Virus record (IMG/VR): IMGVR_UViG_3300013902_000003
Span: 1 to 48,611 of that record
DNA: 48,611 nt
From: a virus
Direction: 5' to 3' (one strand)
Below the pieces are notes generated by a model, which had not been told where the DNA came from, did no database searches, and saw nothing but the letters and a program-made list of their open reading frames with translations. Positions 16,401 through 48,611 of this stretch are shown here, in pieces. How positions within the stretch are numbered: the stretch's first letter is position 1; every line of letters begins with the position of its first letter. A program made the translations under genes and the position numbers.

Positions 16401-19400
16401 ACGCAAGAAGAACAATTATAGATAACGAAAATTGGATAACGATATATAATCAAAGTTTAAATCTCTTATCTCAAATTCAAAAAAATCCTGAAAAACTAAG
16501 TTTGTCTAATCCCACAAGGCCCTCTCTGTTTATCAATGGTGAAGAAATTAAGCCTTCCACTGATAGTGCAATAGCGGAACTATACGGAACAATAATTGAT
16601 TATTCTCTTGAAAATAACCTTATAAAAAAACCTGAAGGAGAAGTCTCATTTTCTTCAGGACTTAATCGCAAGTTAGAAGACAAATACTATCAAGAATACT
16701 TTAAGACGCTTTTTGACGAAGGAAAACTTATTCCAATGATTGAAGGGATGTCTAACTCTCCAATAAGTGATAGCTTTAACATAGAAGATGTTCTTGACGT
16801 AGCTAAGAGTATTAACAGCGTTGAAGTTTACGCCCCCACATATGGCTCTCTCTTAACTGTCGATATTCCTGAAAATGAAGTTCTTCTTGATGAAGAGAAG
16901 AGATTCTCTAATCAATCTGAATTTGTTCAAAAAGCAATTAAGAGACTTTTTGCTAACGAGTTTGGAATGGACTTTAACGAGAATTGGAGAGGTGAAGGAA
17001 TATATAGTGCGATACAACAACAAATTGCTAAAAAGCTCCAATCCCCTGAAGATTTACCTAAGCAAGCATCCTTAATGCTAGCTAAGTACGGAGTCGAAGG
17101 AATTACATATGTCGGTGAGACAGACGGTCGTTGTTTCGTCATTTTTACAGATGAAGCTATTAAGAAGGTCGATTCTAGACTCTATCAGATAGGCGACTCC
17201 GAATGGACAGAGACTGCTAAGCGTATCGCTTATGAAGCATCAAGCCTTGAAGACTTCTTCAAAAAGTATAGGGAACAAGTTGAAGACGGAAACATAGAGC
17301 TAGACGACGCCAACGTTTCACAACTCTTAACAAGTATCTATGATGAAGCCGAATCAGAAGCATATGATCCGACTATAGAAGGATACTTTGACGAAGAAGA
17401 GAGTAGCTCTATTGTTGATGAAGATTGGTCAGTTGAAGAAGTTGAGAGCCCTACAGAAGAAGAGAGTATGGCATCGCCTTCAACAACTACTTCTATGTCA
17501 GATGAAGTTCCTGATTGGTTCGACCTTACAGAAGAAGAAATAGCATCTTTAAATAAGGACGCCGAGACAACAGAAAAAAATACACAAGAATTAGAAAAGA
17601 ATATCTCAGATATTCAGAAAGTCGTTGTAGACGCAGACCTACCTAAAGGCTTATCTCTAGACCATTCTAGAAGCCTTGATACTTCTTCTCACGCAAGAGC
17701 TATCGAATTTGCTAACATTCTCAAAGGTAGTAAGGAAGCCACAATCGAGTTTTTAAAGGCCCTTAGAGAAGTTAATAATGAGTTCTTCTATAATAATGGA
17801 GCTGAATATAACGAGGCCGTAAACGAAGAGAGTTATCAAGCAAAGACTATAAGAGAGTCGGCATTTAATAACTTCAAGAATATGAGTAAGTTCATTCAGA
17901 ACCTAGTCTATGAGAGTAGAGGAAGTCAGTACCGTAATCTAGATAAGATTACAGATAGAGCATGGAAAATTGTAGCCGGTCAAGTCAGTGCTAATCCTGA
18001 TGTTTATATGGACCTTTATTCTAGAGCATCTGGTAATACATCTTGGTCAGGAGAGAACTCTATCGAAGCAAGAGTCTTATCTGAAATTGGTTTAACAGAA
18101 AGAGATTGGAATAATCTCTCATACTCTAAGAGAAAAGAATACATCCAATACATTGAAGACAAAGACATAAGAAAGAAAATCCTTACAGGAGACGTTAAAG
18201 ACATTGATTTAAGAGGATATATCGAACGCACAGAAAAGAGGGCAGAGGCGGCACTTAGTGAAGCAAAAGCACTTGAAGAGAGTCAGAAGTACATCATAGA
18301 CGAGAATAAGAAGACTATTCTCAAACTAGGTAATGAATCTCAAAACTATCAGAAACAACTATTAGAGATAGAGAAAGAGAAGAACGAAATACAAGAAAAG
18401 TTAGAACGCAATGTTAAGAGCATGGAGAATAAGCTTAAGTCATCTAATATGGATACATCTAACACTCTTGTACATGCCGATTTACTCAAGAAAATGACTG
18501 AGCTTAATAGAAGAGAAGCACAGTATCAGAAAGCTCTCAAAATGTGGCAGAAAGGTTCAAGCACAGTTACACAAGAAGATTTAACTAGAATCAAGGGATT
18601 AATCGAAGACGCTAGAGCCAAAATTGAAGAGCTACAGAAAGCCGAAGAGATTACACCAGAAGAAGCTATCAAGAGATTACAGAGTCTTTATAACGCATGG
18701 AAAGACGCTAAGACTAAAGAGACTATCGATAAGCTAAAAGATAAGTACAATGTCAGATTATCAAACCTCAGACAGACTAAAAACGAAGCTATCGTTGAGA
18801 CAAGAAAACGCTACATGGAAATCATGAAAGAGCGAGAGACTCTTAGACGTATTAGAAGTGAGAAAGAGAGACTTATTAAGCAAATCATGAAAGCACCTAG
18901 TGCGAATATTGCAAGAGAAGAAGCAAGACAGATTAAAGCATTGCAACTCTTAATTGACCCTGCATTTAGAAGAGGTACTATAAAAGCCCTTGACGGTAAG
19001 GTTTATACAGTGGCAGAACTCAAAGCTATGCTTACAAAAAATAGTGATGATCCAGTTATTCAGACTTTAACAGAAAGACAGATAGAGCGCCTTACTAAGA
19101 CTTCTCTTGACGAGATGACTCTAAGCGAAGTTGAAGACACATATCGCTATATAAAGCACCTTAGAGAGGAAGGACTCAATAAGAGAAGAAGTGAAATTAT
19201 TCAAAGGAAGGCAGAGACTCAGATTATCTATAATGAGTTAACTAACGCTCTCATGGAAAGTAAGAACTTTGCTGACTATGGTTTTGAAGGTACAGAAGAT
19301 AAGAAGAACAGACTCAATACTAAGTCAGGTAAAGTAAGGAATGCATGGTATCAGACTCTCAATATGGCAAGAAAGGCTCAAATTCTTGATAACAATGAGA

Positions 19401-26611: not shown

Positions 26612-27142
26612 TTGTTATCAATGAGAGAGATTGAATCAAAGTATTCAAAAATAGTTGTAGATAATCTTTTGAGACATCAGTCTAAAATTCAAAATATGGC
26701 AGAAGAAAATCACAACGATAAGTTTGCCATCGTTATAAGGCAAGATATGAGACTTGTGAAAAACAAAGATTCAAGCGTTCAAGCTTTTAGGTATGTAAAA
26801 AATGGAGAAGAACCAGAAGGTAGTGTTATGGTTATAAAACATCTACAAGACCCAAACCAAACTCATCCGTATAGTATGATGAATATATTGAAAAACGTTA
26901 AGTCAAGAATAGCCAAACAAGGAATTGATCTAGCTGTTAATAAGAGTCATATACAGGAGTTCATCAGCTTTTATGATTTAAAGCATGATGAGAAGTACTG
27001 TTATACACATAGGAATTATAATACTCCATCTTATTCTTATTCTCCCGATCTAGTAGATTTTATCGTATGCGAAATTCAAAAAGATATAGATTGTTTCGAG
27101 AAAATTCATAACCAAACATTAAAAAGAAAGAAAAAAAATTAG
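26612..27142 (+). CDS. Hypothetical protein; either the C-terminal continuation of 26139..26564 or a separate gene starting at ATG 26621
   Basis: The ORF-track start is TTG. The first ATG, at 26621, has GGAGA 13 nt upstream. Confidence 0.45.
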   Translation: MLSMREIESKYSKIVVDNLLRHQSKIQNMAEENHNDKFAIVIRQDMRLVKNKDSSVQAFRYVKNGEEPEGSVMVIKHLQDPNQTHPYSMMNILKNVKSRIAKQGIDLAVNKSHIQEFISFYDLKHDEKYCYTHRNYNTPSYSYSPDLVDFIVCEIQKDIDCFEKIHNQTLKRKKKN

Positions 27143-27326: not shown

Positions 27327-27418
27327 CGAAGTATCAAGCTTTGTGGCAGTTGACAACTTTAAAATTTAAACATCTTGAAGTTAACACGCCTAGAGCTTTT
27401 CACGGCAGTGCCACTTCT
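27305..27418 (-). ncRNA. Candidate antisense small RNA, paralogue of the 37680..37780 RNA
   Basis: Driven by the promoter at 27425-27453. The terminator-like stem CCAC..GTGG is followed by a T-run on the minus strand. About 95 nt are homologous to 37727-37815. Confidence 0.35.
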
Positions 27419-27424
27419 ATTTGA

Positions 27425-27453
27425 ATTATCATTAGAACACCCTAAAAAGTCAA
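27425..27453 (-). promoter_or_regulatory. Minus-strand promoter TTGACT-17-GATAAT
   Basis: Read on the reverse complement; operator O3 lies 3 nt upstream of the -35 box. Confidence 0.55.
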
Positions 27454-27489: not shown

Positions 27490-28236
27490 TTACTTTTCTA
27501 ATTCTGATTCTACTTTTCTTATTTGTATATATAAAACAAGTTTAATTAAAGAAAAAATGCCATCTAAAAATTTCCAAAAGCTAGAAGAAAAATCAAAACT
27601 GTCAGAAAAGCTTAAAATGACTATTAAAGACATTGCACACATAGCTACCGTTGCAATTGATAAAGAGAAGGTGAGGAATTGTTTAAAATGCAATCTTAAT
27701 GCTACAAGAATTATTGCATCTACAATTACTAAGACTTTAAAAAGTGTATAAATCCACTCTTTATCGCTATAGTAGACCCAATCAGGGTCAGAAAATAACA
27801 TAAATAAACCATATCCAAATGGAGCGATTAAGAATATAAACTTAAATAGTTTATACAAGGGATTAGAGTTTCCCAACGAATCAGACATAGTATAAGTCTC
27901 CTTTTTCCTATTAGAATTTTCACTATAATCGTTTGGATTAAATCTATTAGACGCATCGATACGATTGAGTCTTTCTTTTACCTCATCGCTAAAGGAATCA
28001 TATTCCATAAGTCCTCTTGCTCTCTTTCTTCTTTCTTCTTCTGATTCTTCATCTTCTTCCATATCTCTAGGTCCATAAAATAACACATGCATCACGTAAC
28101 ACATAATAAAAGAGTAAATTAAAAATAGAACGAACCACACAGTACTGTCATCCGAAATATCAAATGTAGAATTACCTATAATGTATGATAAAATCGTAAG
28201 ACAGATGGCTACAATTTCTCCACAAATTACCCACAT
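27490..28236 (-). CDS. Multi-pass membrane protein co-transcribed with the repressor (superinfection-exclusion / abortive-infection candidate)
   Basis: The start ATG abuts the repressor stop (TAAATG). Two N-terminal and about four C-terminal hydrophobic segments flank an acidic loop. Confidence 0.55.
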   Translation of the reverse strand: MWVICGEIVAICLTILSYIIGNSTFDISDDSTVWFVLFLIYSFIMCYVMHVLFYGPRDMEEDEESEEERRKRARGLMEYDSFSDEVKERLNRIDASNRFNPNDYSENSNRKKETYTMSDSLGNSNPLYKLFKFIFLIAPFGYGLFMLFSDPDWVYYSDKEWIYTLFKVLVIVDAIILVALRLHFKQFLTFSLSIATVAMCAMSLIVILSFSDSFDFSSSFWKFLDGIFSLIKLVLYIQIRKVESELEK

Positions 28237-35736: not shown

Positions 35737-36057
35737 ATGGCAAAGGGACAAGATATCCAGATTATCGAATACAGGAATGGCAAACCTATGCATATTTACG
35801 GATTACAAGAATGTGCAACGAATTATCATTGTCACACAGAGCTAATAAAAGGCTTGATCTATACAGGTCAAGCTTTTCCCTATTCAACAGACTCAATCAC
35901 ATTTGATATTCATCCAAAGAGCCCTTACCACATAGAAGAAGCTAAGATGAATCCAAATAAGAGAGAAAAATCTAGATACTACATGTACGAAATCGTTGAA
36001 GATAAAGACACAGATCAAGGGCAATTAACGTTTATGGATTTTCTAGATAAGGAGTAA
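35737..36057 (+). CDS. Hypothetical early protein
   Basis: SD AAGGGAG; 106 aa. Confidence 0.5.
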   Translation: MAKGQDIQIIEYRNGKPMHIYGLQECATNYHCHTELIKGLIYTGQAFPYSTDSITFDIHPKSPYHIEEAKMNPNKREKSRYYMYEIVEDKDTDQGQLTFMDFLDKE

Positions 36058-36071
36058 AGGAGATATTATAT

Positions 36072-36527
36072 ATGGCAAAGATGGGAAGACATCTTAAATA
36101 CGAAACTCCAGAACTCTTAGAGAAAGACGCAATGAAGGTACTTAACGAATGCTCTTTTGATGATGGTCCTGTTCCAACAATAGCATGGCTTGAGTTTAAG
36201 TTAGGTATAGACTTCTATACTTATGCTAATCGTCCACGTTTTAGAGATACTTGTAATCGACTCAATAAGATAGCCTTTGCACTATACGAGCAAAAAGCAA
36301 ATAGAGGGTTGATAGTCCCACAGATAGCAAAGCTCAAACTCTCACATCATCCTGAATACGCTCCCGTTGTTACAGAGATGGAAGTAAGACACGAAGCTAC
36401 AATAGACAATAAGCTCTTTGCATCTCTCTTTGATAAAGCTAACGCACTAGATATAGAGAGTAAGTCGCTCTTGATTGATAATCTCAATAAAGTAGTAGGA
36501 GATGAAGAAGGAGACGATGATAGCTAA
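36072..36527 (+). CDS. terS: Terminase small subunit
   Basis: N-terminus YETPELLEKDAMKVLNEC...PTIAWLEFKLGI typical of TerS. Immediately upstream of and overlapping the TerL ATPase ORF. Confidence 0.6.
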   Translation: MAKMGRHLKYETPELLEKDAMKVLNECSFDDGPVPTIAWLEFKLGIDFYTYANRPRFRDTCNRLNKIAFALYEQKANRGLIVPQIAKLKLSHHPEYAPVVTEMEVRHEATIDNKLFASLFDKANALDIESKSLLIDNLNKVVGDEEGDDDS

Positions 36528-37476
36528 GAAAAAACAAAATCTATCGGAAGAAAATAAGTTAATGGCTAAAGCTCTATTACAAGCTCTAGACAGATCATAC
36601 TACTTAAAGAGTTTAGGCTTCTCTTGTTTCGATTGGCAAATAGACGTTCTTAGAAACCCTGCAAAGAGAAAAGTCATAAACGGTGCTAGACAGAGTGGAA
36701 AGAGTACAGTTGTATCTGCTGTCCCCGCACATACAGCACGATTCTACCCAGGATCTATATCAATCATCGGTGCACCCACAGAAAACCAAGCAAACGAAAC
36801 TATGAATAAGGTTATCGCATTCATATCAAGAGACCCTGACTACCCCGAATTAAAGAAATGCTCCACAGAAGAAGTTGAACTCTCTAACGGTAGTAGAATC
36901 ATTGTTAGAACAGCTAAGTCTGATACGTTCAGAGGTTACTCTTGTCCACGCGTTATAATCTTAGACGAAGCGTCAAGAATAGAAGAGGACGCTTATACAT
37001 CCGGTGCACGTCCTATGCTCACAGATAACCCCAATGGAGAGCTGTATCTAATATCAACACCATTTGGTAAAGAAGGATTCTTCTACGAAGCGATGAACGA
37101 CACGACAGGAGTATGGAGCAGATGGAATATCAGAAGCCCTTATACCGTCGTTGGAACAGGAACAGAAGCACACTTAGAAGAGTATATGTCATCAGATGAG
37201 TTTGAGAGTCTAGGAGAGAATAGAGGTATCAAGAATTACTTTTCACCGCGTCACAAAGATTTATCATTCCAGAGCGAACAGTTAACAGAGATGGGCATCA
37301 TGCAATATAGACAAGAGTACGAGACCCTCTTTATAGAAAAACAAGGACAAGTCTTTAGCTACGATGAGATTCAAGATATGTTCGTTCATGGAAAAGAAGA
37401 CTTATTAACGATTGAGAGAAGGGCTCTAAATACAGGTGGCAAATCAGATAGCCATCCTATTTCTTTTGCTGTATAA
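36502..37476 (+). CDS. terL: Terminase large subunit, ATPase half only
   Basis: Walker A GARQSGKST and Walker B RVIILDEAS. Ends in a stop after the ATPase domain, and no nuclease motifs are present. Confidence 0.8.
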   Translation: MKKETMIAKKKQNLSEENKLMAKALLQALDRSYYLKSLGFSCFDWQIDVLRNPAKRKVINGARQSGKSTVVSAVPAHTARFYPGSISIIGAPTENQANETMNKVIAFISRDPDYPELKKCSTEEVELSNGSRIIVRTAKSDTFRGYSCPRVIILDEASRIEEDAYTSGARPMLTDNPNGELYLISTPFGKEGFFYEAMNDTTGVWSRWNIRSPYTVVGTGTEAHLEEYMSSDEFESLGENRGIKNYFSPRHKDLSFQSEQLTEMGIMQYRQEYETLFIEKQGQVFSYDEIQDMFVHGKEDLLTIERRALNTGGKSDSHPISFAV

Positions 37477-37538
37477 TACCCCTAGCACTGTCTGTAAAAG
37501 GGTAGGGGCGGTTAGTTAACTTCATGTCACCTAGACAT

Positions 37539-37579
37539 GGAGGGATAAAAAAACCTCCAAATCTTAAAAGAAGAGGAGG
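37539..37579 (+). promoter_or_regulatory. Alternative pairing element: CCTCC (37554-37558) can pair with GGAGG at 37539 or with the SD GGAGG at 37575
   Basis: Read directly. SD sequestration is typical of type I toxin mRNAs. Confidence 0.4.
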
Positions 37580-37586
37580 CACCAAC

Positions 37587-37676
37587 ATGACAGATTATGA
37601 AATGTTGAATTTAATAATTAGTCTGATTGGACTTGTTCTTACAGCTATTCTAGTAGCAAAGAACAATAAAAAATAA
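37587..37676 (+). CDS. 29-aa hydrophobic peptide, Hol-Tox/type I toxin-like (MTDYEMLNLIISLIGLVLTAILVAKNNKK; not in the ORF track)
   Basis: GAGGAGG lies 7 nt upstream. A single TM helix with a Lys/Asn tail, matching the recalled pattern of holin-like toxins of Bacillota. Confidence 0.5.
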   Translation: MTDYEMLNLIISLIGLVLTAILVAKNNKK

Positions 37677-37679
37677 AAA

Positions 37680-37780
37680 AACTAGTCGCCAATTGTTATT
37701 TTACCTCTTTACTTTTGGCGGCTTCAAACATAAATTCTTGAAGTTAACACGCTTTAAGCTTTATAGACAGTGCTACTTCT
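37680..37780 (-). ncRNA. Candidate antisense RNA (type I antitoxin candidate)
   Basis: Promoter TTGACT-17-AATAAT at 37787-37815 (minus strand). Terminator stem GCCGCCAA/TTGGCGAC (37685-37722) followed by a T-run that overlaps the toxin stop codon. Confidence 0.4.
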
Positions 37781-37786
37781 ATTCGT

Positions 37787-37815
37787 ATTATTACCTTATC
37801 CCATTCATAAGTCAA
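37787..37815 (-). promoter_or_regulatory. Minus-strand promoter TTGACT-17-AATAAT
   Basis: Homologous in sequence and spacing to the promoter at 27425-27453, but without an adjacent operator. Confidence 0.5.
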
Positions 37816-37835
37816 TATTTTTGAGCCTTCAAACT

Positions 37836-37855
37836 ACAACGACAGCACTACCAAC
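37836..37855 (+). promoter_or_regulatory. Late-block motif copy C (ACAACGACAGCACTACCAAC)
   Basis: Lies 51 nt upstream of the ATG at 37887. Confidence 0.5.
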
Positions 37856-37886
37856 TTATGTTTTTAAATAGTGATACTATCAAGCT

Positions 37887-38258
37887 ATGGCAGAAATACA
37901 AAACAAAGATATAGTTGAACTTAAGAACAGTACAGGGTTTATCGTTTTTCCAAAAACCACAGGAGAGGCTGTCTATCTAGCTGACGGACGAGACGTTGAA
38001 GCCTTTCTTAAGGCGCTACATGAAGCTTTAGAATTTAATATTGTTCCCAAAGCAAACGAGACAGTATCACTAGGTACAAGCGAAAAGAAATTCAAAGAGC
38101 TTAGAGTCAAGAAAATTTATGTTGTAGAGCTTGAAGCAACAGGTGGCTCTATTAACGTTGGAACTCTAAACGCAACTACCGTTGTCGCAACAAATCTCAA
38201 TGGCAACGTTAATTCATCTGGAACTACTAATAAAGTCTATGGGGCAGTGGCACAGTAA
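37887..38258 (+). CDS. Short fibre-tip-like protein ending in VYGAVAQ
   Basis: 123 aa. The C-terminal YGAV motif, and 13 identical nt (TCTATGGGGCAGT), sit at the same offset from the stop as in the long fibre (1231-1243). Confidence 0.45.
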   Translation: MAEIQNKDIVELKNSTGFIVFPKTTGEAVYLADGRDVEAFLKALHEALEFNIVPKANETVSLGTSEKKFKELRVKKIYVVELEATGGSINVGTLNATTVVATNLNGNVNSSGTTNKVYGAVAQ

Positions 38259-38767
38259 TGGCATTCAACGTAGGTGATTATATAACTGCAAAAGGCATTA
38301 ATGATATCAACAAGGCTCATATCTGGAATAGCTACCGTAAAGAAGGATGGAGAGACTGGAACTTAGATTACAGGTGGTATTCCCAAAGAAAGGCAGGGGA
38401 ACTTTTAGCGGAGATTCATATCCAAGTTGGGGCATTTGGAGGGATTGCCTACAGATTTGCAAAGGTTGACGCGTCGAACAACGTTCTTCAATGGCTTATA
38501 AATGAGAATTATGTAAATATCTCAGGAGTATCCAAAGACTTGACTATAAACTCTTTGGGGCCTGGATGGTATAGAGTATGGACAGCAGAGACTGCAAATC
38601 CTATGGCAAAACCTAACACAGGTAAGTTTTATTCATCACAACTAAACTGCCAAGCAAACAAATACCTCACGCTCTATGATGATCCTGCTGTTAGTGGCAA
38701 TAGATTAATAGGTTCATATATTACGGCCGAACTACTCAATAAAGGCCGTGGAGGCACTTTAAATTAA
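38258..38767 (+). CDS. Fibre-associated protein carrying the G-D-x-I-T-A..N motif twice
   Basis: TAATG start-stop overlap; VGDYITAKGIND and GSYITAELLNKG. Confidence 0.5.
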   Translation: MAFNVGDYITAKGINDINKAHIWNSYRKEGWRDWNLDYRWYSQRKAGELLAEIHIQVGAFGGIAYRFAKVDASNNVLQWLINENYVNISGVSKDLTINSLGPGWYRVWTAETANPMAKPNTGKFYSSQLNCQANKYLTLYDDPAVSGNRLIGSYITAELLNKGRGGTLN

Positions 38768-38800
38768 ACAAATACAAAACAATACAAAGGAGAAAGGAAT

Positions 38801-39103
38801 ATGGCAATAGAAGTTAAAGTATACAAAGGACAGAGTGCATCGGGGACACCAGATATCTCACGTGAAGTTAATAGATATGTTGTAAACGACGAGCACGTAG
38901 CAGTATCAGTAAAAGGTGGATTACTTAATAAAACAATCCTTTCTGGAGACTTAGTAACAGTCATAATTACTGACCCACAGAATGGCACTGTATCTAAGCT
39001 TTGTAAGTATATCTCTTACAATTTCCAAGTTATGGACAGTGCATCATCTTCAAGCCCTGATACTATTGCTGACAATACTCTTCTCTTTGAAGTTATCTAC
39101 TAA
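38801..39103 (+). CDS. Hypothetical protein, third gene of the inserted cassette
   Basis: SD AAGGAGAAAGGA; 100 aa. Confidence 0.5.
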   Translation: MAIEVKVYKGQSASGTPDISREVNRYVVNDEHVAVSVKGGLLNKTILSGDLVTVIITDPQNGTVSKLCKYISYNFQVMDSASSSSPDTIADNTLLFEVIY

Positions 39104-39119
39104 GGAACAACAAGCAAGA

Positions 39120-39839
39120 ATGAACGAGTGGATTATAAGCACTGATATTGCTAAGGCATATGACAGAACAACGGTTGCAATTTTTCAGAAGTGCAACGAG
39201 TTTCTCTCTGACGGTAGGTGCATCTCTTATATCATAGCAAGAGACCTTAAGCAGTGGGAGCAAATGCCATATACAGAACTAGGACGCGTTATGTGTCGAC
39301 TAGATAGCAATTCAGAGCTACACCACAACAACGATTTACTTGTTGATTCCACAGGAGTAGGAGAAGCAGTTTGTGATGTTTTTGAAGAAGCAGGACTACA
39401 ACCGAAGAGAATAATTTTTACAGGTGGAGAGAGTAGTAAGATTAGAACTTCTAGTAGAGCCTTTGCAGACTTCAATCCAAGACGAACTATTAATGTTCCA
39501 AAAGCAGAGTTAATTGACACTCTAAAGCTAGGGTTAGAACAAAGACGAGTAAGAACAGCAGAAGGAATAGCGTTCGAGGATGATATCAAAAAACAGTTCT
39601 CTCACTTTGTAGAAATGCTCACACGCACGAAGAAGGTCACATACGGGAATGATTCACCAACAGTGCATGATGATATCGTTTGTGCTTACGCTATGGCAAC
39701 GTGGTTCTTCTTTCAAGAAGACGGAGCATTAAAAGACTTTGTATATGACACAAAGCGTGGCTATAAGACATTATCTCAATCTAGATATCTTAAAGGCTCT
39801 AACGAAACAGCTGATTACGACGCAGAGAAGACAATTTAG
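39120..39839 (+). CDS. terL: Terminase large subunit, nuclease half only
   Basis: ORF-track 38982 trimmed to the ATG at 39120. Contains the RNase-H-like TerL nuclease motifs ISTDIAKAYDRTTVAIF, LLVDSTGVGEAV and HDDIVCAYAMATW. Confidence 0.8.
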   Translation: MNEWIISTDIAKAYDRTTVAIFQKCNEFLSDGRCISYIIARDLKQWEQMPYTELGRVMCRLDSNSELHHNNDLLVDSTGVGEAVCDVFEEAGLQPKRIIFTGGESSKIRTSSRAFADFNPRRTINVPKAELIDTLKLGLEQRRVRTAEGIAFEDDIKKQFSHFVEMLTRTKKVTYGNDSPTVHDDIVCAYAMATWFFFQEDGALKDFVYDTKRGYKTLSQSRYLKGSNETADYDAEKTI

Positions 39840-39859
39840 AAAAAAACAAGGGAGTTTTT

Positions 39860-41515
39860 ATGAAAGACTCAATAAAAAAAGAACAACTTAAGAAGCTAAT
39901 AGATCTTAAGAGTAGCTTAGAGAACAAAAGAGATAGCGAGAAGAAAAATACGTGGGATAAGCTCAAGCGTTATGTTCTTCCAGAGCTCTTAGAAGCAAGC
40001 GAAAGAGAGAAGCTTATACATTACTCTACTACTGCTAGACGCTACACAAATCTAGCAGCTAACGCGCTACAGGGATGGGCATACGGAAGGACTATCTCAT
40101 GGCTTAACATCGAGATTGAAGACAAGAATGTTAAAGGCAAGGATGTTGATAAAGACGCTAGAGAATGGTTTCAAGAATGCAGACAGATAATGCTTGATGA
40201 TTTAGCAAAGGCAGATTTCTATGACGAATCACTAGCCTTTACAGAAGTTGTTCTTAACCTTTCTACAGGTATCATGCTTCTTGATTGGAACGAGGAGAAT
40301 GATTCATTCGTAGTTGAGAATGTATCGCCTGATAGGTGTGTTATAGCACAGGACAAGTTTCATCACGTTAATCTTTGTATGTATGAGTTTACTCTTAACA
40401 AGGACCAAGCCGAGGATATGTTTGGAGATGATTGTCCTCAGAAGATTAAAGACGCTAAAGGCTACAGTGAAGACTATGTTTTCACAAAAGCCATGCTTTC
40501 TTCTAAGCGTTATGATATCGATAACGTTCCAGGAGAGGGCGAATGGATTGAAATCATTTGGTCAGAGGATGATAAAGAGAAGGCTGTAAGCTCACGTAGA
40601 ACAACTCACAAACCTTTTATATGTTGGAGATTTGAGCGTTCTTTGACAGGCTCTCCGTGGGGATGTAATAGCCCTGGCGAAATGTGTTTAGCTAATATCA
40701 TCGATTTAAATATCAAAGAGAAAGCAAAACAACAGGGTATGCAATTAAGATTAATGCCACCTATCAAAGCGACAGAAGGGCTAGCTTTAAATCTAACGCC
40801 GAACGGAGTAACAAGAGTTAGTGGCAGTAGGGACTTTGCATATACTCCACCTCCAGGAAACAGTGAAGAAGTTCTAGTCGAAATACAGAGGGTAGAGCAG
40901 TACATGAAAGAAGCTTACTATGTAGACTTCTTCTTAATGCTTCAACAGACTCTAGAGAAGAATAAGACAGCAACTGAAGCTACTCTCTTAGCTGACGAGA
41001 AGTCTCAGATAATGGCATCGTTTACTTCACGCTTAAACAACGAGTTCCTAGAGCCGATTCTAGAGACGCTATGGGATATGGAAATTAAACACGGAAGATT
41101 TCCTATGCCACCTGATAGTTTAAAAGGCGAAGAGATAAGAATTGACTATGTATCTCCTCTAGCATTAGCACAGAGAAAGGCACAGATTTACGTTCCTGCT
41201 AGACAGTTTATCGCTGAAACCTTGTCATTTGCCGAGATAGATCCTTCTGTCAGATATATCTTTAAGATACCTGAATACGCAACACAGATGGCTCAAGATA
41301 TGATGATTGACGAACGCTTCTTGAACTCTCCTGAGGAAGTACAGGCGAAAGTACAACAGGACCAACAGTTAGCTATGGAACAAATGCAGTCACAGAACGC
41401 ACAGAACGAAGCAAAAACTAACGCCGCTGTTTATAGTGCATATTCCAAGGCACCGGAAAAAGGCAGTGTAGCGAGTCAATTAACAGGTACATCAGGAGGA
41501 AATAATAAACAGTAA
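39860..41515 (+). CDS. Portal (head-to-tail connector) protein
   Basis: 551 aa, directly after the terminase, with an acidic/Gln-rich C-terminus. Positional call plus resemblance to podovirus connectors. Confidence 0.65.
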   Translation: MKDSIKKEQLKKLIDLKSSLENKRDSEKKNTWDKLKRYVLPELLEASEREKLIHYSTTARRYTNLAANALQGWAYGRTISWLNIEIEDKNVKGKDVDKDAREWFQECRQIMLDDLAKADFYDESLAFTEVVLNLSTGIMLLDWNEENDSFVVENVSPDRCVIAQDKFHHVNLCMYEFTLNKDQAEDMFGDDCPQKIKDAKGYSEDYVFTKAMLSSKRYDIDNVPGEGEWIEIIWSEDDKEKAVSSRRTTHKPFICWRFERSLTGSPWGCNSPGEMCLANIIDLNIKEKAKQQGMQLRLMPPIKATEGLALNLTPNGVTRVSGSRDFAYTPPPGNSEEVLVEIQRVEQYMKEAYYVDFFLMLQQTLEKNKTATEATLLADEKSQIMASFTSRLNNEFLEPILETLWDMEIKHGRFPMPPDSLKGEEIRIDYVSPLALAQRKAQIYVPARQFIAETLSFAEIDPSVRYIFKIPEYATQMAQDMMIDERFLNSPEEVQAKVQQDQQLAMEQMQSQNAQNEAKTNAAVYSAYSKAPEKGSVASQLTGTSGGNNKQ

Positions 41516-43548: not shown

Positions 43549-44784
43549 ATGTATTATTCTTGTGTTATGAGTTACTTTCCTTATACGCGTTTTGATTTTC
43601 TAACGACTGAAAATTACTACTATCCTCTAACATTTGAGTATGATGATAGAGATAAGGTTAGTATCGTTGTTTCAGATGAAAAGGGCGTATCAAAAGCTTT
43701 AGAGTATGGGAGTGACTACACGCTTGAAGGTGATAAGATAAACATTCTTTATCCTCAAGGGCTCAATCAAAAGTACCTCTTAGATGTAACGAAGATTTAC
43801 GCTATTAGATTCTCTGGCATATGTGAGACTCCTGAATTTCAGTATGGTGTATATCTAGACGTCAAGAAAGTCCAGAAGACTCTAGAGAACATGGCATTAC
43901 AGATAGCAGAAGTTCAGATGACAAGTGAGAACTCAGTTAAGCTTGCGTATGAAGAATGGGATAACGCCAACGAAGAGCCTCTTGTTCAGATTCCAACAGT
44001 GAAAGAGAGAGCAAATAACTTCTTTGCTTTCGATACTAACGGCCGTGTTCTAATGGTCAGAATGGCAGATCTAGCTATCGACTTACAGAAGTATATTAAA
44101 TCAGGCACAGACCCCGTTGTAGTAGACGTGTCAGCAACCTCTTTTACATTCCCTGCTACGGCACAAGGCGTAGTCAATCCTTATTTGTTCTCATCTCAAT
44201 TAAGAAGTGAATTTACAGTAACGCAAGGTAAAGTTAGATACCATGCTATTCCAACTAAAACTTCACCTACAGAGAAGGGAACATTCTCTCTTTGGACAAC
44301 ACCTACAGGCATCGGGAACTATGAAGTCGTTAATAATGTAGTTCGTGGCTCTTTAGCAACTGAGATGACAGAAGATAACGCTTTAATTGTTGTTGAAGTA
44401 AAATATTTAGACCTAGAAGGTAATACAGGGACATTCAGAAAAGATATATCACTCTCTAAGGCTAAAAGTGGAGAAGATGGAGAAAACGGAGCTGACGGCT
44501 ACTCTTTTACCTTACGCATTATTTCCTCAAACGGAAACGCATTTAGAGTTAGCGATAACGTAGACACAACTCTTTCTGTACAAGTATTACGTAACGGCGA
44601 AGATATAACAGACACAATGGAAGATTCACGCTTCAAGTGGATTAGAAAAACAGATGATGAGATTGAAGATGAAAAATGGAATACAAGCTCTAAGGCTCTA
44701 TATCACAAGAGCGTTGAAATAACCAAAGAGGACTGTATTGGTCGCACCGTATTTGAGTGCGAAGTTGAATTAGGTGGTCTATAA
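43549..44784 (+). CDS. Tail fibre/adaptor protein with a T7 gp17-like N-terminal domain and a C-terminal Ig-like domain (the start may be 43567)
   Basis: The segment YPLTFEYDDRDKVSIVV...YTLEGDKINILYP...IYAIRF...LENMALQIAEVQ resembles the gp17 N-terminal tail-attachment domain. Confidence 0.5.
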   Translation: MYYSCVMSYFPYTRFDFLTTENYYYPLTFEYDDRDKVSIVVSDEKGVSKALEYGSDYTLEGDKINILYPQGLNQKYLLDVTKIYAIRFSGICETPEFQYGVYLDVKKVQKTLENMALQIAEVQMTSENSVKLAYEEWDNANEEPLVQIPTVKERANNFFAFDTNGRVLMVRMADLAIDLQKYIKSGTDPVVVDVSATSFTFPATAQGVVNPYLFSSQLRSEFTVTQGKVRYHAIPTKTSPTEKGTFSLWTTPTGIGNYEVVNNVVRGSLATEMTEDNALIVVEVKYLDLEGNTGTFRKDISLSKAKSGEDGENGADGYSFTLRIISSNGNAFRVSDNVDTTLSVQVLRNGEDITDTMEDSRFKWIRKTDDEIEDEKWNTSSKALYHKSVEITKEDCIGRTVFECEVELGGL

Positions 44785-44816
44785 AATCCCATAAGGGGAA
44801 AGGAGATATATAGAGA

Positions 44817-45866
44817 ATGGCAAAAACAAGTGCAAGTTTTACCTTGATGGATTACACAGATGGTATATCGCTCATTACAGGGATAGATAGCAATCTTCCT
44901 TTGACGTCGCTTTACGATACAGCAAATCAGAAGTTAAACCCTAGTTGGGCTGGAGAGACTAGTCTTATTCTCACACCTAAGGTTATGAAAGCTGGTTCAA
45001 GTACATCGCTCTTAGAGACCATGACAAACAAAGCATGGCAGAGACGTATTTCAGGTGGTAGTTGGGTTAGCGTAGTTAGTGGAGAAAATGGCGAAACAAT
45101 GAACGCTAACACAGGAGCTCTTACAGTTGCTACAGATAAGCTTGTCGGTGATGTATGGCAGATTGACTATAAGTTCACAGGTTCTTACTTAGACCCAGTT
45201 CTTAAGCTTTCTTTCCCCGTTGAAGTATCAATTACTTTTTCACGTGTTGCAAATGGCACATCATTTGTAGTCGCTAGAGCATACGCCCCAGGTGGAAGCC
45301 AATTTAAAAACAATCAACCTTCAAGCCTTTCTGCAGTAGCAGAGTTAATCAGAGGTACTGCAAAGGATTCTACAGACCTTACTTATACATGGGAAAAGTC
45401 TACTAACGGTACAACATGGACAGCTCTTTCAGGGAAGACAACAGCAACTCTTGCTATTACCCCTGATATGGTAGATTCGTTCGTTGTTTTTAGATGTAAG
45501 ATTAAAGATACTGACAGTGCATCTGATACATACAATCAGACTTTCACAACTGAAGGCGTATCTTTTTACGATGTGTCAGACCCATATCAAGCAGTTATTG
45601 AGTCTACAGCAGGTAATTTCTTTAAGAATGATACGGGCTCTACTATTCTTATTTGTCGTGTTTATCAGAACGGTACAGAGATTGATACTAAAGGTAGTAC
45701 TCTTACTTACACATGGACTAAGACAGATAAGGACGGTAACGCAGTTGAAGCATTCTCTCCAACAGGCGTTGAAAAAGATGACATTGTTGCTACAAACAAG
45801 AAAGCAATTAGTGTAAGTCATAGCGACGTTGACGTAAAAGCAACTTATTTCTGTTCAGTTAACTAA
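44817..45866 (+). CDS. Fibre/adhesin protein with repeated Ig-like domains
   Basis: Internal repeats LTYTWEKSTNGTTW...VVFRCKIKD and LTYTWTKTDKDGN...ATYFCSV; SD AAGGAG. Confidence 0.5.
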   Translation: MAKTSASFTLMDYTDGISLITGIDSNLPLTSLYDTANQKLNPSWAGETSLILTPKVMKAGSSTSLLETMTNKAWQRRISGGSWVSVVSGENGETMNANTGALTVATDKLVGDVWQIDYKFTGSYLDPVLKLSFPVEVSITFSRVANGTSFVVARAYAPGGSQFKNNQPSSLSAVAELIRGTAKDSTDLTYTWEKSTNGTTWTALSGKTTATLAITPDMVDSFVVFRCKIKDTDSASDTYNQTFTTEGVSFYDVSDPYQAVIESTAGNFFKNDTGSTILICRVYQNGTEIDTKGSTLTYTWTKTDKDGNAVEAFSPTGVEKDDIVATNKKAISVSHSDVDVKATYFCSVN

Positions 45867-45898: not shown

Positions 45899-48611
45899 AT
45901 GAGTAAATGTTCAGATAGTATAACATTGTGCAAAGTTTCAGATGGGGCAAGAGGCTTACAAGGGTTACAAGGACCACAGGGGGAACAAGGCGTTCCAGGT
46001 AAAGACGGAACTAATGGAACTAACGGCAAAACTAGTTATTTTCATATAAAGTATTCGTCAGTTGCTAGTCCTACATTATCTAGTCAAATGACAGAAACTC
46101 CCTCTGAATATATAGGTACTTACGTTGACTTTACTGAAGATGATAGTACCGACCCTAGTAAGTATAAATGGGCAAGATTTGAAGGCTTACAAGGAGAGAA
46201 GGGCGACAAAGGAATACCAGGTACTGACGGTACAAACGGCAAGACATCCTATCTACACATCAAATACTCTAACGACGGAGGAGCAACCTTTACTACTAAC
46301 AATGGAGAGGTTGTAGGCGACTACATTGGTGTATGTACTGACTTTAATCCTGATGACCCTACTACTGTCTCATCTTACAAGTGGTCAAAAACAAAAGGCG
46401 ATACAGGTGCTACAGGAAGTCCGGGAAAAGACGGTACTAATGGAAAGGACGGCAAGGACGGTACAAGCGTTACTATTGTTTCTCAGACTAAGAAGTATCG
46501 TAACGACTCACAAGGAGATACCGTCCCTAGTGGTGGTACATGGACAGATTCACCTAATCCAGTCAAAGGCATGTATCTATGGTGCTTAATTACAACTAGT
46601 TATTCAGATGGGAGAACTGATGTTTTACCAGTTGTTTCATATGTTGGTACTGACGGCGCTAAGGGCGATAAAGGTGAAACGGGTGCTACAGGACCACAAG
46701 GTCCACAGGGGGAGCAAGGAGAGAAGGGAGATACCGGTGCTACAGGGCCTCAAGGACCTAAGGGGGACCCTGGCAAAGATGGTACTAATGGTACAAATGG
46801 TAAGGACGGAAAAACAGGCCAATACACAGCTTTCCAATACTATGCTTCTACCTCAGATACAGCACAGCAAGGTGGAGCATGGAGTGATACTATGCCTTCC
46901 ATCTCAGGGGGGAAGTATCTATGGATGAGAACTCAAGTAGTACCGGCAGGAGGAAGTATTAGTTCGTCATCATGGGGAACTCCAGTCTTAGCAGGTACTG
47001 ATATTTCTAAACTAATGACTACAATTGAGACGACTAATTCTCAAGTAGTGGAATTAGGCGACAAGGTAACACAGAATACTACAGCAATTAACGCCAACTC
47101 CACGGCTATAGCTACTAAGGTCAATCAGACTGTTTATGATGATAAGATTAGCTCTATTGAGAGTACAATAGAGCAGACGGCCAATAAGATAGCTTTGACA
47201 GTGGAAACTGTTAATGGGGAAAAAGTCGTTAAGTACAACGGTATTGTTATCTCTGAAAAGGATGGCGAAGGCAACATCCTTATTAGAGCTGATAAAATAC
47301 TCTTAGACGGCAGTGTTACGGCTGATAAATTAGACGTCAAAACTCTAAACACAGTATACCTTACAATCAATGGCACTCTCGATAATGATGTATTATCGAC
47401 AATTGATAAAAATGAAGCGGGAGAGGCAATTTCAATTGGAAGTGTTGATGATACGAACAAGTATTATCTTGCGTCTCAATTAAAAATAAAGATTAAGAGT
47501 ATCTCATCAAATACTATGAGTCTTTTCTCCAAATTAGGAAATTTTTCAAATGTAAGGGTTATAAATAATACAGATAACAGTTTTTTTACAGAGGATCATT
47601 TTGAATATTATAAAAGATTCTCAGCTCTACCTTTTATAACAAACAGCATAAATGCTTCAGGTAGTATATATTATTGGCCAACAAATCAATACTTTTCTTT
47701 TGCAAATTTGGAAGAAAACCCAATAAGGACATCAACAGATGGTTATAACTGGGGATATGGTACAAATTCATGGGCATCAAATCAAAAGAATCTTTTTGGT
47801 CGTTTTGCTATTAGTCGAAACGAAACAGAACCTACTCTACATTGTGTATGCTATGAAACAGGAACAACAAATCCAATTAGATTAATGAGCACGACAGATG
47901 GTTATAATTTTTATAACCAAGATACTATCGCAAGAACATCAGTAGATGATTCATTCTTTTTGTATAGCTCTTTTAATAGTTATCCCGTTTTAGTTACAGA
48001 AAAACATACTTACTTTATTGCACCCTCTGGTATTACATTTCTAACTGCAAATTCAGAGATAAGTGTGCAAGTTAGTTCTCCTTTAGCCTCTCAATCTTTC
48101 CATGAGATAACTTTACCTATTACTCCTGAAAAAGTTTTTTCTGGGATTTTACTTAAGAATAATTCTATTTTATGTTGTGTTTTGCAATATAATAGCACTA
48201 AGTATTTTTACTTTAAAAAATCCTCCTCATGGATTTCATTCGCTGTACCAGATAATATAAAAAATAAAAATTTTTCCGAAGCAAATTATTATGAAATTGG
48301 CGATTATCTTTATATTGTTGCTTATAAGTATGTTGGAAAATTAAATCTAACAACTCTTACTTCCTCTTCAACAATCGAAACTATGTTTAGTGGGAATTAT
48401 TATGGAGTAGTCCCAATTTCAAATAAGTACATTGTTATACTTGAATACGACCCGAATTTAAAAACATATTCAAGGTCTCTATTCTCAGAAACAAGAAAAT
48501 TGGGTGGGCTTCCTGCCAATTCATCTCTTGTTTCTAGTGCTTTTTTTTACAAATCTTTCCCTCAACCATATGGAAACATTTGCTATATCGATGACAATAC
48601 TACTGTAATTC
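45899..48611 (+). CDS. Collagen-like tail fibre, proximal part. It runs off the window end and continues at 1..1253, giving 1295 aa in total.
   Basis: Translated by hand from the ATG at 45899. Four G-X-Y blocks (~45944-46030, 46184-46245, 46398-46470, 46655-46820) alternate with repeated KTSY(F/L)HIKYS...YIG...D..DP..YKW modules. There is no stop before 48611. Confidence 0.8.
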   Translation, partial: MSKCSDSITLCKVSDGARGLQGLQGPQGEQGVPGKDGTNGTNGKTSYFHIKYSSVASPTLSSQMTETPSEYIGTYVDFTEDDSTDPSKYKWARFEGLQGEKGDKGIPGTDGTNGKTSYLHIKYSNDGGATFTTNNGEVVGDYIGVCTDFNPDDPTTVSSYKWSKTKGDTGATGSPGKDGTNGKDGKDGTSVTIVSQTKKYRNDSQGDTVPSGGTWTDSPNPVKGMYLWCLITTSYSDGRTDVLPVVSYVGTDGAKGDKGETGATGPQGPQGEQGEKGDTGATGPQGPKGDPGKDGTNGTNGKDGKTGQYTAFQYYASTSDTAQQGGAWSDTMPSISGGKYLWMRTQVVPAGGSISSSSWGTPVLAGTDISKLMTTIETTNSQVVELGDKVTQNTTAINANSTAIATKVNQTVYDDKISSIESTIEQTANKIALTVETVNGEKVVKYNGIVISEKDGEGNILIRADKILLDGSVTADKLDVKTLNTVYLTINGTLDNDVLSTIDKNEAGEAISIGSVDDTNKYYLASQLKIKIKSISSNTMSLFSKLGNFSNVRVINNTDNSFFTEDHFEYYKRFSALPFITNSINASGSIYYWPTNQYFSFANLEENPIRTSTDGYNWGYGTNSWASNQKNLFGRFAISRNETEPTLHCVCYETGTTNPIRLMSTTDGYNFYNQDTIARTSVDDSFFLYSSFNSYPVLVTEKHTYFIAPSGITFLTANSEISVQVSSPLASQSFHEITLPITPEKVFSGILLKNNSILCCVLQYNSTKYFYFKKSSSWISFAVPDNIKNKNFSEANYYEIGDYLYIVAYKYVGKLNLTTLTSSSTIETMFSGNYYGVVPISNKYIVILEYDPNLKTYSRSLFSETRKLGGLPANSSLVSSAFFYKSFPQPYGNICYIDDNTTVI
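48534..48611. repeat. Terminal direct repeat copy 2, identical to 1..78
   Basis: Direct comparison of both window ends. Confidence 0.95.

Follow-up and report, generated by a model that had tools for sequence, protein, structure and literature searches.

A probable two-gene large terminase in a temperate gut phage and its relatives

The virus DNA analyzed here, referred to as the window, is the whole 48,611-nucleotide (nt) stretch of IMG/VR record IMGVR_UViG_3300013902_000003. It carries the ATPase and nuclease domains of a large terminase subunit (TerL) on two separate open reading frames (ORFs), which lie 1,643 nt apart with other genes between them. Very probably this TerL is natively made of two polypeptides, its split is old and shared by a wide clade, and the cassette between the halves settled later in a junction that tolerates insertions. 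A single-chain TerL is the rule, and TerL is generally treated as an obligate single chain of two domains.

Two halves of a large terminase

The upstream ORF codes for a stand-alone TerL ATPase. It matches Pfam Terminase_6N (PF03237) over profile positions 2–214 of 215 at 58.2 bits, well over the cut-off of 22 bits, and TerL families of PHROG, several in number, match it too (best E value 1e-29). The Walker A (GARQSGKST, residues 61–69) and Walker B (VIILDEA, residues 151–157) motifs are legible in the translation, as an earlier annotation made from the letters and translations of the window (the sequence-only reading) had stated. Residues R63, Q64, G66, K67, S68, R144, D155 and E156 are invariant in an alignment of 22 sequences. 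The closest deposited phage protein is the 417-residue single-chain TerL of Thermus phage Riverbug, to residues 4–243 of which the ORF aligns (E 4e-37), and among the best 120 homologues listed, down to 45% identity, all have an ATPase-only length of 273–340 residues. The ORF ends in ..ISFAV, which had been taken for a short unrelated tail. That description fails, since the tail is kept in relatives with and without the cassette, for example as ..ARSFAV in locus L011; the comparison supports ..ISFAV as the native conserved C-terminus of the ATPase.

The downstream ORF aligns by BLASTP to residues 251–399 of the same Riverbug protein (E 2e-7, 23% identity), and a profile built from 21 nuclease homologues matches three TerL nuclease structures with E values between 2e-4 and 5e-4: 5tge (phage P74-26), 5m1q and 5m1f (phage G20c). 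Across the 21 sequences, all of them 233–240 residues long, D9, D76 and D184/D185 are invariant; their aligned counterparts are D253 in Riverbug and an HDD motif seen in both Riverbug and 5tge. The subunit also has a conserved acidic and aromatic C-terminal tail, DYD..TI. No Pfam or NCBIfam match was found for this ORF, and its sole PHROG match is the unannotated phrog_27743. The single ORF searched against the PDB by phmmer gave noise only, and the profile was needed. By tblastn it has no match among 50,697 GenBank phage records; of two distant stand-alone nuclease ORFs compared with GenBank phages, that of L043 found no match and that of L048 only the fused TerLs of Thermus and Meiothermus. 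Given the alignment of the ATPase to Riverbug residues 4–243 and of the nuclease to 251–399, the inter-domain linker is precisely the site of the break. Together these matches agree with the earlier placement of the nuclease domain from the ATG at 39120; the ORF at 39120–39839 is the matching TerL nuclease half, and its nuclease is predicted to be active. The two are not encoded as a single chain, as the ATPase ORF closes with a stop codon at 37474–37476.

Selection on both halves is strong. Between the window and L005, the comparison used for all values given here, the ratio of nonsynonymous to synonymous substitution rates (dN/dS) is 0.050 for the ATPase, 0.024 for the nuclease and 0.040 for the neighboring portal gene. 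With the values for the three ORFs of the cassette (Table 1), dN/dS of 0.02–0.09 indicates strong purifying selection on functional coding sequence.

Table 1. Features of the terminase region, by position in the window (SD, Shine-Dalgarno sequence)
Feature	Coordinates	Strand	Basis or remark
Candidate small terminase subunit, 151 residues	36072..36527	+	26-nt overlap with ATPase ORF; weak Pfam GP3_package match, E 0.009, below cut-off
TerL ATPase subunit, 324 residues, stand-alone	36502..37476	+	Terminase_6N; Riverbug alignment; conserved tail ..ISFAV
Sigma-70-like promoter match, TAGCCA-17-TATAAT	37449..37477	+	Consensus scan; upstream of toxin-like ORF
16-nt inverted repeat, arms 37483-37498 / 37760-37775	37483..37775	.	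94% complementary; brackets toxin-like locus
Type-I-toxin-like ORF, 29 residues, MTDYEMLNLIISLIGLVLTAILVAKNNKK	37587..37676	+	Hydrophobic helix then KNNKK tail; GAGGAGG SD
Hairpin GTCGCCAA..TTGGCGGC	37685..37722	.	Directly after toxin-like ORF; A-run before it on + strand is T-run after it on - strand
Candidate antisense (antitoxin-like) RNA start region	37735..37815	-	TTGACT-17-AATAAT match; ~75-nt repeated element
Late-gene motif TACAACGACAGCA	37835..37847	+	52 nt upstream of cassette ORF1
Cassette ORF1, 123 residues	37887..38258	+	Conserved in L005-L008, L092-L094, L095; dN/dS 0.087
Cassette ORF2, 169 residues, predicted beta-sandwich	38258..38767	+	AlphaFold2 pLDDT 80, all-beta; dN/dS 0.029
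Cassette ORF3, 100 residues	38801..39103	+	Conserved in L005, L006, L008, L092-L094, L095; dN/dS 0.048
TerL nuclease subunit, 239 residues, stand-alone, RNase-H-like (predicted)	39120..39839	+	Riverbug alignment; profile match to TerL nuclease structures; invariant Asp
T7-type portal protein, 551 residues	39860..41515	+	Pfam Head-tail_con, E 2e-60

Separate genes across relatives

A scan of GTDB species genomes gave 80 loci, and their plus-strand ORFs, together with loci fetched earlier, were searched with hidden Markov models. Loci are designated by L numbers here. Both halves were found at 67 loci, and they are separate ORFs at all 67, in line with the two-polypeptide TerL that had been listed earlier as one option. 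The hosts include Clostridia, Spirochaetota, Acidobacteriota, Chloroflexota, Deinococcota, Gemmatimonadota and methanogenic archaea. The spacer between ATPase and nuclease has a median of 29 nt, and the halves overlap or abut in 18 of the 67 loci; frame offsets of 0, 1 and 2 occur at 15, 19 and 33 loci, respectively. At many loci the nuclease has its own SD and ATG, often as an ATGA overlap behind GGAGG or with the SD a few nt past the stop. Homologue lengths likewise point to stand-alone halves: when 1.84 billion cluster representatives were searched with no filter, most of the best 150 hits had 212–366 residues and only about 15 reached 415–780. A neighbor-joining tree of the ATPase domains, which is unrooted, places split loci in both of its halves; the fused-length forms make up three small clusters, one of Planctomycetota, one of the phages of Thermus and Meiothermus, and one of L076.

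Two relatives hold the two ORFs and no cassette. First, in L004 (61% identity) the ATPase ends in TAG TAA and the nuclease follows 9 nt later, in the same frame, behind AAGGA. Second, in L011 (67% identity) the halves overlap by 4 nt (ATGA) behind AAGGAG. The portal gene directly follows the nuclease in both, and the C-terminus of the ATPase and the N-terminus of the nuclease are the same as in relatives that carry the cassette. Since cassette-free relatives have two ORFs and the ORFs are separate at every one of the 67 loci, the split is older than the cassette; by these comparisons the two-gene state of TerL is an old one.

A defective prophage or an assembly chimera, in which the halves would be decaying remnants, is very unlikely. 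In its favor, an integrase and a CI-like repressor mark the phage as temperate, and no cultured relative was found; megablast of 36000–40500 against GenBank phages gave no match. A scan of IMG/VR with the ATPase ORF confirmed no relative. However, an exact 78-nt direct repeat at the window ends (1–78 and 48534–48611) closes the contig on itself into a circle of 48,533 bp. Besides the integrase, the repressor and RecT/YqaJ, the window encodes a full structural complement that includes a GP7-type capsid protein, T7-like tail proteins and the portal. Because capsid, tail, a polyvalent protein, integrase, repressor and RecT/YqaJ are all encoded, this is a complete temperate phage and not a decaying remnant, and the dN/dS values of both halves, about as low as that of the portal gene, and the invariant catalytic residues say the same. 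Contigs nearly identical to the window turn up in many samples. A protein 97% identical to the ATPase (P0001) is present on 14 contigs read, and a homologue of cassette ORF2 (P0296) on 24. These contigs are mostly 20–50 kb long and come from different samples, and those shown, which include contigs of ~47–48 kb, have the junctions of the window; this recurrence across independent samples therefore rules out a chimera. The window is thus the complete circular genome of a temperate, podovirus-like gut phage. The closest labelled organism in the GTDB scan is an Oscillospiraceae metagenome-assembled genome (MAG), and several relatives derive from human gut metagenomes.

The sequence-only reading had favored a single-chain terL broken into two ORFs by a toxin-stabilized cargo cassette, an explanation that we now consider highly improbable. 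The cassette does lie exactly at the boundary between the domains, and it holds a toxin-like ORF and promoter-like sites. Against this, L004 and L011 have the two ORFs and no cassette, the result that the sequence-only reading had itself named as pointing to an ancestral split, and the facing ends of the halves are unchanged there. The toxin ORF, moreover, is deleted in six of six near relatives that keep the cassette. The cassette does not exemplify an essential gene used as landing site; it occupies a junction that was already intergenic.

It is likewise very improbable that the halves are rejoined by an intron, split-intein trans-splicing, frameshift or readthrough, translational bypass, or DNA excision. 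Such rejoining has precedents: in the "fractured genes" of Dassa et al. (2009) a gp17-like terminase is broken by a split intein and a free-standing endonuclease gene, with N-inteins of 88–105 and C-inteins of 33–54 residues reported (PMC2677866), and in Streptomyces phages short non-coding stretches break up the ter genes, for which recoding was proposed (PMC10732093). The TerL of Mic1 is interrupted by an intein, and the halves of L004 share a frame. In the window, however, no Rfam intron is found at the gathering threshold, nor at E<=10 in 37200–39400; the ATPase ends about 25 residues past its last conserved motif and the catalytic Asp of the nuclease is residue 9, which leaves no room for intein halves; the 1.6-kb gap is filled by three ORFs under purifying selection; and contigs from independent samples show the same junctions. 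A conserved frameshift or readthrough fits poorly with the spread of frame offsets and with the SD and ATG that often open the nuclease ORF, and L004 has two consecutive stops. The earlier statement that the intervening DNA is neither intron-like nor intein-like is therefore upheld. Fractured genes are similar in that foreign ORFs separate the two parts of the gene for an essential enzyme, and one junction in this clade, that of L020, holds a putative HNH ORF; but here intein halves are lacking and, as the break lies between domains, protein splicing is not needed. The intein, fractured-gene and recoding precedents for TerL do not apply here.

A variable slot and its cassette

Among the 67 loci, gaps above 1 kb are restricted to the sublineage of the window: 1,643 nt in the window, 1,385 nt in L005 and L006, whose ATPases are 97% identical to that of the window, and 1,265 nt in L008 (73%). 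A homologous three-ORF cassette is present in L005, L006, L008 and L092–L094, and also in L095, where it lies upstream of the nuclease and portal genes. The halves are thus adjacent in L004 and L011 and 1.3–1.6 kb apart in the window, L005, L006, L008 and L092–L094, an arrangement that, on comparison of the loci, marks the cassette as a moron-type insertion in a pre-existing intergenic slot.

Other relatives fill the junction with other genes. In L009 (6014–9246), L010 and L012 (70–73% identity), the ATPase gene is followed by genes for 409, 346 and 302 residues, the first two of which are 59–67% identical to the window genes 43549–44784 and 44817–45866; those window genes match PHROG tail-fibre and tail-protein families, and the genes of this sister lineage look orthologous to them. 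In L020, a prophage in a Treponema MAG, the junction (6651–7171) holds a 91-residue ORF in which ..DRIDNDGNYEPSNCRWVTRAEN.. reads as an HNH endonuclease motif, and the junction of L003 holds an 83-residue ORF. The junction tolerates insertions because the halves are independent genes. The contigs of L009, L010 and L012 end before the nuclease and portal genes, and their TerL genes may be more than 3 kb apart.

The 1,643-nt gap of the window contains three protein-coding ORFs and a small hydrophobic ORF. All three larger ORFs that had been proposed there are present and constrained, with dN/dS of 0.029–0.087. The copy of a late motif noticed earlier in the gap is likewise genuine: the motif, TACAACGACARCA, occurs three times in the window (2665, 37835 and 43515) compared with 0.15 copies expected by chance. 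The other two copies lie upstream of the major capsid gene and of a tail-fibre gene. The motif is in equivalent positions in L005, L006 and L092–L094, and before the cassette in L007. Its presence before cassette, capsid and fibre genes points to late expression of the cassette. The gap had also been credited with promoters of its own. Consensus matches are indeed there, but they are only that, 13 being found compared with 8.2 expected; the terminator candidate is the hairpin after the toxin-like ORF. In L095, a 105-residue ORF (314–631), sigma-factor-like or helix-turn-helix-like by eye, stands before the block of cassette, nuclease and portal, where the ATPase gene would be expected, and could encode the factor that reads the late motif.

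Searches of Pfam, PHROG, NCBIfam and PADLOC returned nothing usable for cassette ORF1–3; an NCBIfam GTA_spike_fiber match (E 0.023) is not relied on. ORF1 has no tblastn match among GenBank phages, and its single-sequence AlphaFold model, with a predicted local distance difference test (pLDDT) score of 38, is unusable. For ORF2, a fold search returned generic beta-sandwiches at template modelling (TM) scores of ~0.3, including carbohydrate-binding modules, the C-CPE domain and fibre or tailspike domains. A specific fold assignment for ORF2 was rejected on account of these generic matches. The ends of ORF2 are conserved and its core is variable; identity falls to 55% in L092–L094, in which the neighboring ORFs keep the lengths seen in the window. 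With moderate confidence, judged from context and the generic fold, cassette ORF1–3 may form an accessory module that is expressed late and associated with the virion, of a fibre-like or decoration-like kind.

The main rival for the role of the cassette is a moron for defence, counter-defence or superinfection exclusion that is not associated with the virion, which is possible but on balance unlikely. Its position between two conserved genes, the fast diversification of the middle ORF between neighbors of constant length and the adjoining toxin-like ORF would all suit such a moron. On the other hand, the cassette has no PADLOC match, it shares the late motif with the capsid and fibre genes, tail-fibre genes occupy the same slot in L009 and L012, and the predicted fold of ORF2 is a generic beta-sandwich of binding type. 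A late virion-associated module remains the preferred role.

A type I toxin-like locus had been recognized in the intervening DNA, and it lies at the 5' edge of the cassette. The toxin-like ORF does exist, with the correction that its likeliest start is the ATG at 37587 behind GAGGAGG, which yields 29 residues. It is a small hydrophobic peptide with a charged tail, as type I toxins are, and it resembles Pfam Hol_Tox below the cut-off (E 0.0064; 16.8 bits compared with 23.3); neither NCBIfam nor PADLOC has a match. The region of its mRNA folds with z = -4.55 relative to shuffled sequences; in the fold a CCUCC further upstream is paired to the SD, and past the stop codon lies a hairpin. The ORF may encode a putative toxin, and the hairpin would be a terminator usable in both directions. 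Minus-strand promoter-like sites might, more speculatively, drive a convergent antisense RNA; folds of the putative antisense RNAs revealed no distinctive structure. An element of ~75 nt occurs twice in the window at ~85% identity, at 27372–27432 beside the lysogeny module and at 37735–37795 on the 3' side of the toxin-like ORF. Each copy has by eye a minus-strand TTGACT-17-[T/A]AATAAT-like promoter, and the two may be paralogous antisense small RNA genes.

The ORF is intact only in the window. The six near relatives all keep the SD and the first five codons, two deletions having removed the rest, and both arms of the inverted repeat are absent from near relatives. Since these six retain the three ORFs with only a remnant of the toxin, the toxin is dispensable for retention of the cassette, and the notion of a toxin-stabilized cassette is weak and unsupported.

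Type I toxin-antitoxin loci of Bacillota prophages include txpA/RatA and bsrG/SR4. Like morons and such loci, the cassette and its 5' edge are extra units between genes that are adjacent in relatives, and the small hydrophobic lysine-tailed peptide, the leader that hides the SD and the possible convergent antisense RNA recall type I systems. They differ in that the Hol_Tox match is below threshold and that three larger ORFs follow with a late motif, not a promoter typical of lysogeny morons.

Relation to known systems and implications

Single-chain TerLs (Riverbug; 5tge, 5m1q and 5m1f) have the same two domains in the same order, an ASCE ATPase with its Walker motifs and an RNase-H-like nuclease with conserved acidic residues, beside the genes for small terminase and portal. 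Here, in contrast, the domains are separate products, lack a covalent linker, and are encoded 1.6 kb apart, or adjacently in relatives. Genes in pieces without splicing have precedents in the nrdA of Aeromonas phage Aeh1, split by mobE, and in the T4 topoisomerase gp39/gp60. In these, too, what is usually one chain becomes two non-covalent polypeptides with other DNA between the halves. Those cases are known from few phages and an inserted element is held responsible, whereas the TerL split spans phyla and predates the cassette. Phage phi29, whose genomes are protein-primed and packaged at unit length, has no need of cutting. Its packaging ATPase, gp16, retains no more than a vestigial nuclease domain, as cited in PMC11476376. 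It is thereby similar as a motor ATPase without a covalently attached active nuclease; unlike phi29, the present clade appears to retain an active nuclease, encoded by a separate gene. The herpesvirus UL15 gene has two exons that are separated by other genes and joined by mRNA splicing, and pUL89 of human cytomegalovirus (HCMV) still contains both domains. One passage of PMC6897398 describes the HCMV terminase as an ATPase, pUL56, and a nuclease, pUL89. The likeness lies in a TerL-type gene interrupted by unrelated genes and in activities assigned to different subunits; the difference is that here the parts are not rejoined. Full-text literature yielded no description of a split or two-gene TerL or of such a clade, a search whose coverage left out most subscription journals and which does not prove novelty. 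This suggests that the arrangement is under-described.

Several points weigh against a native two-polypeptide terminase with a later virion-associated cassette. The identity of the nuclease is drawn from a BLASTP alignment at 23% identity, profile E values of ~2e-4 and conserved acidic residues, with no Pfam, NCBIfam or annotated PHROG family behind it. At L016, L018 and L023, all from Treponema, no ATG, GTG or TTG lies near the start of the nuclease domain. The crude, unrooted tree would fit one old split with a few re-fusions, and several independent splits are possible as well. The role of the cassette comes from context and a generic fold, and the active two-polypeptide terminase is deduced from sequence.

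On the native two-polypeptide reading, which is very probable, a wide clade made up of phages and prophages has a two-gene TerL whose halves are usually back to back, separately translated and often coupled. In the sublineage of the window a module of three ORFs, equipped with a late-motif copy of its own, settled between them, with a toxin-like mini-locus at its 5' edge that is intact in the window genome alone. ATPase and nuclease would assemble non-covalently with the small terminase (candidate at 36072–36527) on the T7-type portal; the ATPase ring would translocate DNA, and the nuclease subunit would make the initiation and termination cuts. TerLs of the T3 and lambda types have C-terminal tails that bind the portal. 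By analogy one may speculate that the DYD..TI tail of the nuclease is a candidate docking element.

The chances seem about even that these loci represent a broad, apparently uncultured and largely unannotated clade, from Clostridia to methanogens, in which the motor ATPase and the nuclease of TerL are polypeptides independent of each other. With comparable reserve, the window could be the clearest natural demonstration that the halves act independently, 1.6 kb apart and with late genes between them. If so, covalent linkage of ATPase and nuclease would not be required for headful or cos cutting and translocation, which bears on competing models of the motor. In some models of translocation, among them the T4 "inchworm", the motor depends on movement of the ATPase relative to a nuclease to which it is covalently joined. 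A clade with separate domains could be used to test three points: if an ATPase ring is sufficient to translocate DNA, by what means the nuclease is brought in and held in check, and which subunit docks on the portal. The two-gene TerL clade is the noteworthy part; the cassette by itself is routine phage mosaicism or ordinary moron biology. In practice, annotation pipelines will call such phages truncated in TerL or misjudge their completeness, because the nuclease half lacks Pfam and NCBIfam matches and its PHROG match is unannotated.

The gene in the same position as the candidate small terminase matches Terminase_2 in L011 and, weakly or faintly, GP3_package in L008 and L009. The portal gene lies 3' of the nuclease ORF in all close relatives, with the same order in L003–L006, L008, L011 and L092–L095.

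Other features of the window lie outside the terminase region. A polyvalent protein of 3,654 residues (10436–21400, plus strand), with ART-PolyVal, LPD3, PBECR2 and MuF_C domains, takes up ~23% of the genome. An Rfam DUF3800-I small RNA match (49.2 bits; gathering threshold 44.2) lies at 2450–2571 on the minus strand, in intergenic DNA upstream of the major capsid gene. Two possible accessory or defence genes flank the lysogeny region: a plus-strand ORF with an EC042_2821-like restriction-endonuclease-like domain (26612–27142) and a minus-strand gene for a 248-residue protein that by eye is multi-pass membrane-like (27490–28236). Downstream of the tail-fibre-like genes at 43549–45866, the plus strand carries collagen-like Gly-X-Y coding repeats of families D1, D3 and D4 (45967–46814).

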